Of a stretch of DNA of 40,617 bases, positions 233 through 4,879 are shown piece after piece. The notes beneath the pieces were generated by a model. It was given only the letters and a program-made list of their open reading frames with translations. It ran no database searches and was not told the DNA's origin. The stretch lies in NCBI GenBank assembly GCA_043809365.1, contig JAZDDW010000027.1:1-40617 (forward strand). The letters run 5' to 3'. The DNA comes from a bacterium (GTDB taxonomy: Bacteria; Patescibacteriota; Microgenomatia; UBA1400; UBA12108). The translations under genes and the position numbers were made by a program. The first letter of the stretch is position 1; the number at the start of each line of letters is the position of its first letter.

Positions 233-1003
233 ATGGTAATGCTCAACAAATTGCTGATCGGTTTGGTGATGGTTTTGGTGGAGTGTTGGGCGGGTCAGCA
301 CCAGGTATGGGCGCAGGGCACCTCAACGGGAGTAGCCAACTATGTCAAGGTCAGCGGGGAGTCACCGGATGGGAGTATTGTAATTTCTACCGAACAAGGA
401 TATGAACTGGCTAAAATAGCGTATGACCCGAGTATCCATGGAGTCGTAGTGGACAATCCGGCTGTATCTTTCCAGAACGAAAACATCGAGGGACTGGTGG
501 CGGTTGTGACCAACGGGAGGGCGAGAGTGAGGGTCGCTGCTATAGCGGGAGAGATCAAAGAAGGTGACTTTATTACGAGCTCAACAACCCCTGGGGTGGG
601 ACAAAAGGGAGACCAAAATGGGTTTATCCTGGGGAGAGCGATCACGGGATATAGCGGATCAGGCGAGGGCATGATTGAGGTGATGTTAAATCCAAAATAT
701 AATTCCGCAGTTTCGGGGAGCAAGGGGATCAATTTGTTTAAGGGGATCAAGTCGGCGGCTAGCTCGCCATTTTTGTCCCCCCTGACTTCGATGCGCTACC
801 TTTTGGCGGTTGTCGTGACGGCGGTCGCCTTTGGGGGAGGATTTGCTTATTTTGGCAAGTTTGGCAAGACGGGGATCGAGGCTTTGGGGAGGAACCCCTT
901 GGCTGCGAAGACCATTTATGCAGGGATTGGTGTTAATGTAATGTTAACGATTACCATAGTTGGTGGGGGACTATTTTTAGCATACTTGATATTAGTCTTG
1001 TAA
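233..1003 (+). CDS. Signal peptide + extracytoplasmic beta domain + C-terminal ATP synthase subunit c-like helical hairpin
   Basis: Two C-terminal TM helices are joined by [15 protein letters not shown], which resembles the subunit-c EAxARQPE loop. First gene of the atp operon; the stop is 3 nt before atpA. Confidence 0.7.
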
Positions 1004-1006
1004 CCT

Positions 1007-2431
1007 ATGATGCATACGTTTGAGTACTGTATAGAGAAGAAAAAAGACTGGGGACAGGTGAGTGAGTTGGGGGAGCTACTGGTAGGAGTGTCGGGACTCA
1101 CTGGGGTAATGATTGGAGAGGGGGTGGCGTTTGAGGGAGGTGAACACGGGCGGATCATGGCGATTAGAGAAGAGCAGGTGGAGATCATGCGCTTGTCGCG
1201 AGTACAAGTATTGATGGGAGAGCGAGTAGCGGCAACGGGGATGCCCATCATGACTAGCTGCGGGAAGGGAGTCTTGGGGAAGATGATTAACGGACTAGGA
1301 TATGCAATTGGGGAGGGAAGAGAAAAGAGTAAGGAGAGTGAGTCCCGAGAGATCGATACTAGACCCATGGGGATTGTGGGGCGGACGAGAGTCACAGAGT
1401 ATTTAGAAACAGGCATTAGCCTCTTGGATCAACTAGTGCCGATTGGCCACGGACAACGAGAGCTCGTTATAGGCGACCGCAAGTCGGGCAAGACCCAACT
1501 TTTGCTCCAGATTTTGATTAATCAAGTACGCCAAGGGACGGTGGGGATCTACTGTGCCATTGGCAAGCGGGCGAGTGAGATCAAGCGGATCGAGGAATAC
1601 TTGGTCAAACACAAAATCCGAGATAAATGTTTGATTGTGGCTTCTTCGGCTGCTTCGGTAGCGGGTGAAGTCTATGTGACCCCTTTTACAGCCATGACGC
1701 ACGCGGAGTATTTCCGTGATCAGGGCAAAAACGTCTTGCTGATCCTAGATGATCTCTCTAGTCATGCCAAGTACTACCGTGAGATAGGACTAGCGGCCAA
1801 ACAGTTCCCCGGGAGAGAGTCGTACCCAGGGGATGTGTTCCATATCCAAGCTAAACTCTTGGAGCGGGCAGGGAATTTTTTGATCAAGGGCAAAGCTAAG
1901 GCTATTACCTGTTTGCCAGTGGCCGAGAGTTTGCTGGGGGACATGACTGGCTTTATCCAGACCAACCTTATGTCGATTACAGATGGCCACTGGTTCCTGG
2001 ATACCCAGATTTTCCATACAGGAGCCCGTCCGGCGGTGAACGTGTTTTTGTCGGTCAGCCGAGTTGGGAGACAAACTCAACCGCGCCTGGTGCGGGAGGT
2101 GGGAGAAAAGCTCATGACACTGCTGAAAGAAAGTGAGGCAGTGTCTAGGTTTATGCAGTTTGGCTCGGAGCTAAATAAGGACATAATAGCCATGGTCGAG
2201 CGGAGCCGGCGAATACGCAACGTCTTTAACCAAGTGGGAGGGGCTTTGATCCCGCTCCAGGTGCAGTTGCTCGTGATTATGATGGCGTGGCATGGTTATT
2301 TTGACGGCAAAGGGGTGAAAGAGTTGGTCGAAAAGTACAAGAAGGAGCCATTTACACTAAAAGCCAAAAACTGGGAAGAACTTTTTGCAGAAACGGCAGA
2401 GCAAAACAAGTGGCAGAGGTGGCTGATATGA
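1007..2431 (+). CDS. atpA: F1-type ATPase alpha subunit (divergent, short N-terminus)
   Basis: Motifs PIGHGQRELVIGDRKSGKT, PGRESYPGDVF, TNLMSITDG and SVSRVG. Confidence 0.93.
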   Translation: MMHTFEYCIEKKKDWGQVSELGELLVGVSGLTGVMIGEGVAFEGGEHGRIMAIREEQVEIMRLSRVQVLMGERVAATGMPIMTSCGKGVLGKMINGLGYAIGEGREKSKESESREIDTRPMGIVGRTRVTEYLETGISLLDQLVPIGHGQRELVIGDRKSGKTQLLLQILINQVRQGTVGIYCAIGKRASEIKRIEEYLVKHKIRDKCLIVASSAASVAGEVYVTPFTAMTHAEYFRDQGKNVLLILDDLSSHAKYYREIGLAAKQFPGRESYPGDVFHIQAKLLERAGNFLIKGKAKAITCLPVAESLLGDMTGFIQTNLMSITDGHWFLDTQIFHTGARPAVNVFLSVSRVGRQTQPRLVREVGEKLMTLLKESEAVSRFMQFGSELNKDIIAMVERSRRIRNVFNQVGGALIPLQVQLLVIMMAWHGYFDGKGVKELVEKYKKEPFTLKAKNWEELFAETAEQNKWQRWLI

Positions 2432-3264
2432 AGACACTTAAAGGAGTCAAGGCCGAACAGAAGCAAGTCGTAGAAATACGGGGACTGGTGGAAGTATATG
2501 AGGATATGGCGGCCAAGCGGATGCAGGAAATTAGGGCAAAGATTGTGAGCGCCAGAAGTTATTATGACGGATTGCGCGAGTTGCTTCTCCAAGTGGGGGC
2601 AGACGTGGGAGAAGAGGCGGTGGCTGGGAGTGAGGCACTTGTGTGGATCAGTGCCGATAGCAATTTGTTTGGGGAGATTATTATCCAAACCCGAGAGAAA
2701 TTTTTGACCGAGTTGAAAAATAATCCTCAAGACGACGTCTGGGTAGTGGGCAAGCTGGGAGCACAGATGATGAATCAATACATGCCCAACAGACAATATT
2801 TTACGATTGATTTGCCAGATGAGAGTATGCAAAAAGTTTCGATCGAAGAGTTGGCTTTGAAACTGAAGGATTATCAAAAAATTAAAGTGATTTACGGGGT
2901 GTTTGAAAATATCGTGCATCAAGAGTCCGTGGAGCGAGAGATTGTGGGGATGGGGTGGAGTATGTATCAGGTAGAAACGCACGAAATGATGGCGCGAAGG
3001 CGGAAATTTTTGTATGAACCATCATATAAAGAAGTAGCCCAAGTTTTTGGCGGGCGGGTCATGACGGGAGTGATGCGACAGATGGTGGTGGAGGCAGAAT
3101 TGTCCAAATTTGCCTCGCGTATTATGCATTTGGATCAGGCGATGGATAATATTGATGAGAGTTTGGGACTGCTCAAAAGAGCGGAACGGAAGATCAAGGG
3201 AAGAAATATGGAGAAAAAACAACATAATATGATTAGCGGGATGCTTTTACGGGAGGGAAGATGA
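2428..3264 (+). CDS. atpG: F1-type ATPase gamma subunit (divergent)
   Basis: Lies between alpha and beta with ATGA overlaps at both ends. ISADSNLFG and [15 protein letters not shown] match gamma motifs. The start may instead be GTG 2410. Confidence 0.85.
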
Positions 3265-4652
3265 AATCAACAATCAGGGAAGAGGCTAGGGGGATAGTAA
3301 GTGAGATCGTGGGGGAGGTGGTGGTAGTGCGCTTTAGCGAAGGCAGGCAACCCGAAATTGGCGAGACCCTCTTATCTAGCGGGAGAGAAGAAGTGGAGCT
3401 ACAGGTGTATGAAGGGCGGGGGAAGGAAGAGTATTACGGCCTAATTTTGCGGGGAAAACATGCGATTAGTCAAGGTATGAAACTCTTGGGAAGTGGGAGC
3501 AAGATGAAAATGGTAGTGGGGGACGCTCTTTTGGGCCGAGTCACTAATATTTTTGGGAATGTGTTGGATGGAGACGGGGCAATCGGAAGAGAGACCGAGA
3601 GATTTATCGAGAATAATCCTCCAGCGGTGGGGGAGAGTGAGGCAGGAAAAGAGATTTGGGAAACGGGGATCAAGGTGATTGATTTTTTCTCCCCACTCCT
3701 AAAAGGCGGGAAACTGGGACTTTTTGGAGGGGCGGGAGTGGGAAAGACGATTTTGTTGTCGGAGATTATGCACAACGTCTTTAACGAGAAAGACAGTAAA
3801 ACGAAAAGATATTGTGTGTTTGCGGGGGTAGGGGAGCGGGTGCGAGAGGGACAAGAACTGGTCGAGGAACTCCGGGAGCGGGGAGTACTCCCCAATGTGG
3901 CGCTCATCTTTGGTTCCATGGGAGAGAACGCGGCAGTACGCTACTTGACGGGAATGGCGGCGGCTACGGTAGCCGAGTATTGGCGGGATGAGGAGAAGGC
4001 TGAAGTTTTGTGTTTTGTGGATAATGTCTTCCGCTTTGCGCAAGCGGGGATGGAGCTGTCGACGGTGACCAATCACATCCCTTCGGAAGATGGGTACCAG
4101 CCCATGCTTTCGTCGGATATGGCCAAACTACACGAGCGACTCGTGGGGACCAAGATGGCTGCGCTTTCGACGATTGAGACGATTTATGTCCCTTCGGATG
4201 ATTTACTCGACACGGGGGTACAGGCAATTTATCCATATTTGGATTCGACCATTGTGCTCTCGAGACACGTTTACCAAGAGGGAAGGTTTCCGGCGATTGA
4301 CGTACTAGAATCTTTTTCCTCGGCAATTAACCCGGACGTGGTGGGAGAGGCACATTACCAAGCCGTGATGGGAGCCAACGCACTCCTCAAACAGGCGATG
4401 GAGCTTGAAAAAATGGTGACTCTTGTGGGAGAGGGGGAGTTATCGGTGGAAAACCAGGCCATTTATCGCCGAGCCAAACTCCTGAAGAACTATATGACTC
4501 AACCGTTTTTTGTGACCGAGAAACAAACGGGGATGAAGGGGGAGTATGTAGCATTGGCGCAAACGGTGGCTGACGTGGCCAAGATACTGGAGGGAAAATA
4601 TGACGAGCGCAAGCCGGAGGAGTTGCTTTTGAAGGGTAAGTTGACGGTATGA
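3261..4652 (+). CDS. atpD: F1-type ATPase beta subunit
   Basis: [20 protein letters not shown] (catalytic Glu), [16 protein letters not shown] and TQPFF. The DELSEED loop is degenerate (GELSVEN). Confidence 0.96.
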
Positions 4653-4879
4653 GACTAATTGTGAGAACGGATGAGAAGGTCTTGTTTGAAGACGAGGTGG
4701 AGGCGGTATCGAGCAATAATGACGTGGGAGTATTTGATGTTTTGCCCCAACATATTCAGTTTGTGACTTTGGTTAAGGAAAAGATAGTCGCTCACCGCAA
4801 AAATCATGACCAAGAGATAATGATTGAGGGCGGGATTTTGAAAGTGAAAGACAATGTTGTGGAAGTGTTTGTGGGGTAA
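4649..4879 (+). CDS. atpC: F1-type ATPase epsilon subunit, N-terminal beta-sandwich only
   Basis: GVFDVLPQH and IEGGILKV motifs; 76 aa with no C-terminal helices. Confidence 0.85.

Follow-up and report, generated by a model that had tools for sequence, protein, structure and literature searches.

Introduction

What does an F1-type ATPase do when its operon encodes no subunit a, b or delta? Rotary F-type ATPases are textbook chemiosmotic machines, and the only repurposed F1-like motors described until now, to our knowledge, are those of mycoplasmas. The question is raised by a five-gene operon at positions 233-4879 of contig JAZDDW010000027.1, a stretch of 40,617 nucleotides (analysed over its whole length and called the window here) from a bacterium of the Patescibacteriota (GTDB lineage Microgenomatia; UBA1400; UBA12108; assembly GCA_043809365.1). 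An initial annotation, made from the letters of the sequence, took the operon for a possible stator-less rotary motor that hydrolyses ATP for mechanical or translocation work rather than for chemiosmosis.

Analysis of the operon, of its genome and of its relatives in the phylum makes us confident that it encodes a distinct F-type derivative that does not translocate ions. With less assurance, but on balance, we favour the fuller explanation that the operon belongs to a family of ATPases, spread across Patescibacteria and derived from the F type, that stand outside chemiosmosis and do mechanical work at the cell surface; the mechanism of that surface work is itself put forward tentatively. What appears to be new is an F-type ATPase family in Patescibacteria that has been repurposed away from chemiosmosis. 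We found no description of it in indexed papers. The available passages of an October 2026 preprint (10.64898/2026.10.01.756066) speak of "unusual genomic neighborhoods" of beta homologues from the Candidate Phyla Radiation and of early-branching F-ATPases; these text passages hold nothing on a missing subunit a, a carboxylate-free c or an ectodomain, and Fig. 5 and Supplementary Fig. S3 of the preprint may already depict the cluster.

A five-gene operon with an intact catalytic core

Five co-directional genes on the plus strand fill positions 233-4879. The first, g1 (233..1003; 256 amino acids, aa), belongs to no Pfam or NCBIfam family. It is followed by genes for an F1-like alpha of 474 aa (1007..2431; PF00006, E 3.9e-64), an F1-like gamma (2428..3264; PF00231, E 1.8e-20), an F1-like catalytic beta of 463 aa (3261..4652; PF00006, E 2.5e-59) and a short epsilon of 76 aa (4649..4879; PF02823, E 1.1e-13). 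Three ATGA overlaps join alpha to gamma, gamma to beta and beta to epsilon, and a gap of 3 nucleotides (nt) separates g1 from alpha. An alternative GTG start for gamma lies upstream at 2410; the family alignment and a gamma-profile search favour the ATG at 2428. Neither the open reading frames (ORFs) nor a Pfam/NCBIfam scan yielded a gene for a, b or delta within the operon, as the initial annotation had stated.

The catalytic residues are in place. Window beta has an intact Walker A motif (GGAGVGKT, with K162/T163), the catalytic E192-R193 and the Walker B D254; window alpha has the Walker A motif GDRKSGKT and the Arg finger R352. These features are not peculiar to the window: K162/T163, E192-R193, R195-E196, D254 and R258 are kept in all 22 F1-like betas examined, and R352 together with the Walker A Gly-Lys in 19 of 19 alphas. 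Judged by these residues, the F1-like enzyme looks active. The loop of beta that is equivalent to DELSEED reads GELSVEN (within GEGELSVEN), just as the initial annotation had read it.

Two further traits belong to the family rather than to the window. Epsilon consists of the beta-sandwich alone and has no C-terminal helices, again as described at the outset, and this short form recurs in 16/16 family members. Alpha has only ~15 residues ahead of its first strand. The initial annotation had noted this short N-terminus and, with it, that the delta-binding helix is largely missing; the observation stands. The N-terminus is, however, short in all 19 aligned family members, 17 of which have a delta-like gene, and we therefore reject it as a mark of delta loss.

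A second machine beside a complete ATP synthase

In the assembly, which comprises 0.82 Mb in 63 contigs and is 95.8% complete (genome G000 hereafter), the window is contig C27. Contig C2 of this genome carries a full F1Fo operon. Its products are an a subunit of 252 aa, a c of 84 aa that has the usual Glu, a b of 158 aa, alpha, gamma, beta and an epsilon of 142 aa; its beta scores 770.7 bits on atpD, and the operon holds the sole copy in G000 of PF00119, the subunit a family. Because this operon is complete, the window operon is a second, paralogous machine beside a self-sufficient canonical enzyme. The genome search for AtpB, AtpE, AtpF and AtpH that the initial annotation had recommended thus has a divided outcome. 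Intact atpB, atpE and atpF and a delta-alpha fusion do exist on C2, as parts of a separate operon that is complete and supplies alpha, gamma, beta and epsilon of its own; beyond the genes of that operon, no a, b or delta was found in G000.

The two sets of F1 subunits are only distantly alike. Identity between window and C2 subunits is 34% for alpha, 37% for beta and 28% for epsilon, and window gamma gives no significant BLAST match to canonical gamma (best E 0.013).

In the canonical alpha on C2 (554 aa; 23161-24825, minus strand), the first ~65 residues are similar to the C-terminal portion of delta/OSCP (profile A4, E 8.7e-6). The C2 operon has no delta gene apart from this, and the protein looks like a natural fusion of the C-terminal part of delta to alpha. 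Delta-alpha fusions, and an engineered version that allows several peripheral stalks, are reported in passages of the preprint cited above (10.64898/2026.10.01.756066).

Subunit a is missing from many genomes with the cluster

To place the operon in the phylum, 401 genomes were searched with a gamma-like profile and with PF00119. We divided the gamma-like matches into a "core" group (at least 250 bits) and a "second" group (at least 127 bits), with limits set post hoc from gaps in the scores. Core matches occur in 35 of the 401 genomes, G000 among them, and about 29 more genomes have matches at 127-215 bits. PF00119 is present in 208/401 genomes. The sample includes one unpublished genome, G154, which adds one canonical-type match to each of the 199/401 and 208/401 tallies and enters into none of the other results.

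Subunit a is distributed very unevenly between the groups. It is found in 27/29 genomes of the second group and in 15/35 core genomes; the remaining 20/35 have no match at all, and 19 of these 20 are at least 94% complete. Three of the genomes without subunit a (G245, G352 and G198) are single contigs. In these three and in G128 there was no PF00137 match above the cut-off and no second alpha/beta pair; each has a further ATP-synt_ab match of ~108 bits, which is probably Rho. A different situation is seen in G022, which has the F1-like cluster and no subunit a: at C1:438084-443280 it carries a second ATP-synt_ab pair together with a 188-aa protein that has two PF00137 domains, probably a V/A-type ATPase.

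A c-like hairpin without a carboxylate

The first gene of the operon holds the place of c in the gene order, and its product has an unusual layout: a signal peptide (residues 1-28), a beta domain (~34-157; ~125 residues), a linker with a short helix (158-182) and a c-like transmembrane (TM) hairpin (183-255). An AlphaFold model (pLDDT 82) has the same parts, with a signal helix, the beta domain at 34-157, the linker and two long helices at 183-220 and 222-255. Given the signal peptide, the beta domain would lie outside the cell as an ectodomain and the R-N-P loop of the hairpin would face the cytoplasm, as it does in c. The relatives of g1 number 514 at E values up to 0.001, and all that carry a taxon name are Patescibacteria. 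They are nameless or labelled hypothetical, except for one that JGI calls "subunit c/K", and the protein Atlas has only "hypothetical protein" clusters for them.

Several comparisons relate the hairpin to subunit c. Foldseek aligns it with ATP synthase c subunits at target-normalised TM-scores of 0.60-0.87 and root-mean-square deviations of 1.4-3.3 Å. A profile of the g1 family has a single match in the PDB at E values up to 10, the c subunit 9itj_H (E 0.22), in which the Glu of c falls opposite I240. With hhalign, g1 aligns with the c subunit of G000 itself, or with a profile of six c sequences, in the same register at 56-60% probability (E ~1e-4). Every g1-c alignment pairs the invariant R220-N221-P222 with R-(Q/N)-P, the loop of c, and I240 with the carboxylate of c. 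The initial annotation had called g1 a c-like fusion, and a c-like hairpin behind an N-terminal ectodomain is indeed what we find; the likeness in sequence is weak, and the hairpin is a single one.

The hairpin is the best-conserved part of g1 across 121 family members. Within 189-208 and 230-256, all 121 are free of Asp and Glu. We know of no rotary ion transport that does without a membrane carboxylate on c and an Arg of subunit a. Because the cluster has no subunit a and its c-like subunit no carboxylate, ion translocation as it is known for rotary ATPases is excluded, and a chemiosmotic role for the window machine is, as far as its genes can tell, very unlikely. The claim of the initial annotation that the operon does not serve chemiosmosis is borne out to this extent by 0/121 carboxylates and by the 20/35 core genomes without subunit a.

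A pump could in principle use another chemistry. The hairpin has conserved polar residues, N235 in 114/121 members and T239 in 106/121, and these, with T196 and S199, might form an unconventional site for an ion or a solute that works without subunit a. As both the membrane carboxylate and the Arg of subunit a are absent, we consider such a pump highly improbable.

A lineage outside the canonical synthases

None of the window subunits reaches a curated family threshold. The scores of alpha, beta, gamma and epsilon lie below every NCBIfam cut-off for canonical, N-type, mycoplasma F1-like (two families) and FliI/SctN proteins. For the canonical families TIGR01039 and TIGR00962, beta scores 412.5 against 462.85 and alpha 359.2 against 484.45. 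For the mycoplasma X0 families NF045934 and NF045936 the values are 353.7 against 570 (beta) and 249.5 against 520 (alpha); for the gliding G1-ATPase families NF045858 and NF045863, 303.6 against 850 and 338.6 against 600; and for the N-ATPase families TIGR03305 and TIGR03324, 396.3 against 752 (beta) and 320 against 750.5. For the FliI/SctN family TIGR01026 the scores are 175.7 and 171.2 against 379.5, and the window has separate alpha and beta genes, not one homohexameric gene. In the PDB, window beta scores 295-356 bits with canonical betas and 253.8 bits with the M. mobile G1 beta 9io5_A.

A tree of beta subunits points the same way. It has 39 rows (from 22 F1-like clusters and 10 canonical operons of Patescibacteria, from E. 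coli, S. aureus, Nonomuraea and Phocaeicola, and from two N-ATPases and a single mycoplasma F1-like X0 ATPase), was rooted on 10 alphas and was computed as a quick IQ-TREE run under LG+C20, with SH-aLRT support values only. Loci L039 and L042 have no rows, and the canonical rows number 14. The canonical betas, including those of Patescibacteria, form one clade (support 98). Outside it, the 19 rows of core F1-like betas (99) group (93) with the 3 rows of a second subfamily (100), and these two together with the mycoplasma X0 beta are the sister clade of the canonical one (95). The N-ATPase betas branch separately, at the base of the tree. Pairwise identities agree with this division: canonical Patescibacteria betas are 64-73% identical to the canonical beta of G000, and F1-like betas 40-43%. 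The initial annotation had asked whether alpha and beta would branch within ordinary synthases; in the tree the betas do not, and the cut-offs and the tree together describe a distinct F1-like lineage.

Two remarks concern individual rows. The rows of M. gallopavonis were read from stop to stop with table 11 despite its use of TGA for Trp; from the beta row nothing but the first 9 codons is missing, and the alpha row is cut short, has a wrong N-terminal extension and sits on a branch of length 4.01, so that its placement is meaningless. The atp operons found among plasmid records are there because those "plasmids" (NZ_CP141089.1, NZ_LT559118.1 and NZ_LR215032.1) are chromosome-sized or hold chromosomal core genes: they are a 4.9-Mb E. 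coli, an 11.9-Mb Nonomuraea and a 0.41-Mb Mycoplasmopsis record.

These results bear on the alternative that the window encodes a spare or duplicated F1 sector which borrows a, c and b from C2 and so makes an isoform of the ordinary ATP synthase. G000 does have a complete canonical operon with all three genes, and the window operon does lack a, b and delta. However, the cluster brings its own gene in the c position; 20/35 core genomes have no subunit a to share, and in four genomes that are closed or almost so the cluster is the sole rotary ATPase. At 34% and 37% identity to the canonical pair, alpha and beta fall outside the canonical clade, and gamma is unrecognisable by BLAST. Nor could the canonical delta serve another hexamer, because it is fused to the canonical alpha. 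Sharing of the canonical Fo is thus hardly credible, and we keep to the view that the window machine is a derivative of its own.

Peripheral stalk genes in the family and their probable loss in two genomes

The composition of the cluster was examined in 20 loci around full-length g1 matches, from different genera. In 18 of these, alpha, gamma and beta genes and an epsilon-like ORF lie beside g1, and 17 of the 18 linked clusters also hold two more genes, X and Y. X encodes a protein of 166-258 aa with one TM helix and a long coiled coil; it is b-like by architecture only, and its Pfam matches are weak. Y (125-168 aa) is delta-like, with PF00213/OSCP matches above the cut-off in 5 of the 6 scanned. 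In G148 and G170 the F1 genes are unlinked to g1, and X and Y stand beside those F1 genes. Counted over genomes, 19/21 core genomes have both b-like and delta-like genes in the cluster. Clusters of the second subfamily (G014, G218 and G344) are ordered g1-like, X, Y, alpha, gamma, beta, epsilon, with weak X and Y profile scores of 14-36 bits. The usual order of the family is therefore c-like, b-like, delta-like, alpha, gamma, beta, epsilon, which is the canonical atp order minus a.

Some loci depart from this order in detail. In L049, L052, L053, L054 and L055 the epsilon-like ORF is on the opposite strand just downstream of beta, and in L057 it is found upstream of g1, preceded by X and Y. 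The six loci make up a single clade of the beta tree (99), in whose lineage epsilon has apparently been inverted or moved. In G148 (C4:43238-43768) profile A3 matches X as two pieces that overlap by 6 nt; the ORF call is a single frame of 186 aa, which is probably intact.

Both X and Y are absent only from G000 and G245. G245 comes from the same taxonomic order as G000 and from another family, and its genome is closed. Whole-genome profile searches of G000 and G245 found no X; for Y their one match was the delta-alpha fusion in the canonical operon of G000. Since the 63 contigs of G000 amount to 95.8% completeness, X and Y could lie in an assembly gap there; the closed G245 also lacks both. 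The same two genomes, and only they, have an alpha C-terminus that is ~10-25 residues shorter than in the 17 other alphas: the truncation tracks the loss of the stalk. In the trees their alphas pair (91), and their betas fall in a three-way group (95) with that of G128, which keeps X and Y. We infer that the stalk genes and the C-terminus of alpha, a likely docking helix, were lost once and secondarily in the line of G000 and G245. The stator-less motor of the initial annotation is thus an accurate description of the G000 operon, which has neither b nor delta, and not of the family, in which both are usual and their absence is derived.

Such a loss might also mean decay. In this alternative the operon of G000 is a degenerating or idle remnant that has done no useful work since its b-like and delta-like stalk was lost, as the absence of X and Y, the truncated alpha and the lack of an ectodomain partner in G000 would suggest; a rotary motor without a stalk would moreover be hard to make productive. 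Against this, the five frames are intact and linked by three ATGA overlaps, all the catalytic residues checked and the invariant residues of the hairpin are kept, and the same stalk-less, five-gene form is intact in the closed genome of G245, where it is the sole rotary ATPase. We regard decay as improbable and retain the picture of a working machine that has dispensed with its stalk.

An outward domain and proposed work at the surface

Foldseek relates the beta domain of g1 to the cement protein of phage Pam3 (E 6.7e-5), to decoration proteins of BB1 and to gp12 and gp8.5 of phi29, at E values from 7e-5 to 1e-3, and its fold also resembles Peptidase_G2. The domain is not restricted to g1: many Patescibacteria have it within open frames that are ~300-6900 codons long, and the g1 profile A1 matches 167/401 genomes, mostly over positions 30-165 only. 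At E values up to 0.001 the hairpin was not found in longer proteins (449-2000 aa), which is weak evidence, and among shorter ones (30-139 aa) it was met once, in a 96-aa fragment on a contig of 704 nt; no stand-alone or giant forms were found.

The region upstream of g1 was compared over ~1.5 kb in the 20 loci, and BLAST found no shared ORFs there. In G245 the neighbour on that side (G245:C1:1054087-1058592, that is L087:88-4593, minus strand) encodes a secreted protein of 1501 aa with a Peptidase_S74 (endosialidase chaperone) domain at residues 1286-1338. It overlaps the start of g1 by 4 nt and may be a functional partner, in this one genome. Homology between this protein and the ectodomain of g1 was considered and rejected (hhalign probability 0.4%).

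From these observations an alternative can be built in which the operon encodes an ATP-driven device for export, assembly or chaperoning, comparable to FliI-FliJ at the type III gate, with g1 as the platform and its ectodomain folding or anchoring secreted fibres. The ectodomain does have the fold of the phi29 gp12 autochaperone region, of Peptidase_G2 and of cement proteins; the secreted Peptidase_S74 protein of G245 is translationally coupled to g1; F1 and FliI are homologous, as the NCBIfam matches reflect; and a device of this type would need no stator. But the cluster encodes no channel-forming or export-gate protein, and most members keep gamma, epsilon, delta-like and b-like proteins, a full rotary tool kit. 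The link to a fibre gene is found in one genome, with no conserved upstream neighbour in the 20 loci. We consider export unlikely and prefer mechanical work at the surface.

Flanking sequence

Upstream of the operon, a divergent gene on the minus strand (2..124) runs off the start of the contig. A six-frame reading of positions 1-240 shows 41 codons of its 5' part, with an N-terminus like a signal peptide, and this ORF marks the upstream end of the operon. Downstream, argS (arginine--tRNA ligase; 5018..6763, plus strand; TIGR00456, 360 bits against a cut-off of 261.65) lies outside the system. The ORFs and family matches thereby confirm the placement of the genes, their ATGA coupling and both flanking genes as first annotated. 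A scan of positions 1-5200 for promoters and terminators gave counts not above those in shuffled sequence.

The base composition of the genome is peculiar. GC skew is between +0.14 and +0.44 in every 1-kb window of the contig, regardless of gene orientation. Over the 63 contigs of G000 the mean absolute skew per contig is 0.20 and reaches 0.41, with 32 contigs positive and 31 negative; this strand asymmetry far exceeds the usual replication skew of bacteria.

Discussion

The mechanism that we propose tentatively runs as follows. The alpha3beta3 hexamer would hydrolyse ATP and so turn or twist gamma-epsilon, which would dock on the cytoplasmic R-N-P loops of a ring of g1 hairpins. Torque or strain would then pass through the membrane to a crown of g1 ectodomains, and the crown would act mechanically on structures of the cell surface; the cells in question often lack any further rotary ATPase. 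In G000 and G245 the stalk-less motor may be held by a partner protein, as dimerisation does for the G1-ATPase of M. mobile, or it may act by a non-rotary push-pull. A more ambitious version, which we offer as a speculative possibility, is a transmembrane "power take-off": an F1 head would drive a carboxylate-free, c-like ring with cement-fold domains and deliver energy to the surface. It would have arisen independently of the mycoplasma X0 ATPase and might be basal to F-ATPases, and G000 and G245 would represent a stalk-less mode without a classical stator.

A number of points weigh against these proposals. In sequence, g1 is only weakly c-like: window g1 has no Pfam match at E values up to 0.1 and does not reach the gathering score of PF00137, and only 2 of 26 g1 members touch that family, weakly (best E 0.083), with the hairpin of G245 g1 at E 0.037. 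A helical hairpin is, moreover, an easy structural match, which weakens the argument from fold. A predicted complex of four g1 hairpins (178-256) with gamma and epsilon scored 0.00, in a run that had no controls and in which the fold of the partner was itself uncertain; it counts neither for nor against the proposals. G000 contains a single ectodomain match and no second copy, hence no evident partner protein at the surface. With no subunit a, the membrane offers the ring no known counterpart to work against. Where b and delta are missing as well, the free alpha3beta3 should spin instead of the ring: the hexamer would counter-rotate because a ring embedded in the membrane has much the larger rotational drag, and the motor of G000 therefore needs a tether or anchor for productive rotation, or acts otherwise than by continuous rotation. 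The phylogeny has its own limits. The mycoplasma X0 beta is on a long branch (2.13), and its grouping may be long-branch attraction. A tree constrained to unite all Patescibacteria betas is worse by 25.6 log-likelihood units, at a p value of 0.038 in the approximately unbiased (AU) test, which is marginal, for a group that was named after the tree had been seen.

Comparison with known systems helps to place the family. With canonical F1Fo (atpBEFHAGDC) it shares homologous alpha, gamma, beta and epsilon subunits, the gene order from c to epsilon, the R-N-P hairpin and an intact catalytic site, and most members also share an OSCP-like delta and a b-like protein with a TM helix and coiled coil. 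It differs in lacking subunit a, in its c-like subunit, which is without the carboxylate and has a signal peptide as well as an extracellular domain, in the short N-terminus of alpha and in an epsilon without C-terminal helices; G000 lacks b and delta as well. N-ATPases resemble it in that they, too, come from an additional F-type operon, laterally mobile, in genomes that also have a main one. They differ in having a, a c with an ion site, b and AtpQ/AtpR, and in an order that starts with beta and epsilon.

The closest functional parallel, by analogy, is the mycoplasma F1-like X0 ATPase, the MSC_0618-0624 family (PMC12994834; PMC3369863). In the passages of PMC12994834 that concern us, its alpha lacks the N-terminal helix, the system has no b or delta, one of its proteins combines a signal peptide with two TM segments at its C-terminal end, the ATPase is needed for the extracellular MIB-MIP system of antibody cleavage, and the system is called mycoplasma-specific. 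The window machine is likewise a second F1-like set of alpha, beta, gamma and epsilon beside a genuine synthase in a genome-reduced, host-dependent bacterium. Its alpha too is without the N-terminal helix; homologues of a, b and delta are missing from both; and both have a membrane partner in which a signal peptide and an ectodomain are joined by two TM segments at the C-terminal end. X0 powers an extracellular process, and the mechanism that we suggest for the window machine, from its genes alone, would parallel the powering of MIB-MIP.

The differences from X0 are equally clear. The window operon has no 12-TM protein, no small cytoplasmic subunit and no MIB-MIP genes, and in most of the Patescibacteria members b-like and delta-like genes are retained, as is a c-like hairpin. 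No genes of the MSC_0620, 0623 and 0624 families were seen in the five-gene operon, the latter two families not having been searched by hidden Markov model. Homology of g1 to a MSC_0620-family protein of M. gallopavonis was considered separately and rejected (hhalign probability 0.2%). With the G1-ATPase that serves gliding in M. mobile (PDB 9io5), the window machine shares an F1-like hexamer, the absence of a peripheral stalk and, as proposed here, a mechanical output. According to the portions of 10.1101/2024.06.11.597861 on which we draw, that motor is a dimer in the cytoplasm, and its beta is greatly extended at the N-terminus.

If this explanation is right, the family would represent the same kind of repurposing as in mycoplasmas, in a second radiation of ultra-small, host-dependent bacteria. 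In many of the genomes that bear the cluster it is the sole rotary ATPase. The members of the family form a natural series in which the peripheral stalk is present or absent and in which subunit a and the carboxylate of c are missing throughout. The series bears on the minimal needs for the transmission of torque, and on how processes at the cell surface may be energised where there is no ATP outside the membrane. It also matters for metabolic reconstruction: when a genome is said to have an F-type ATPase on the strength of alpha and beta matches, that may mean no ion-coupled enzyme at all.

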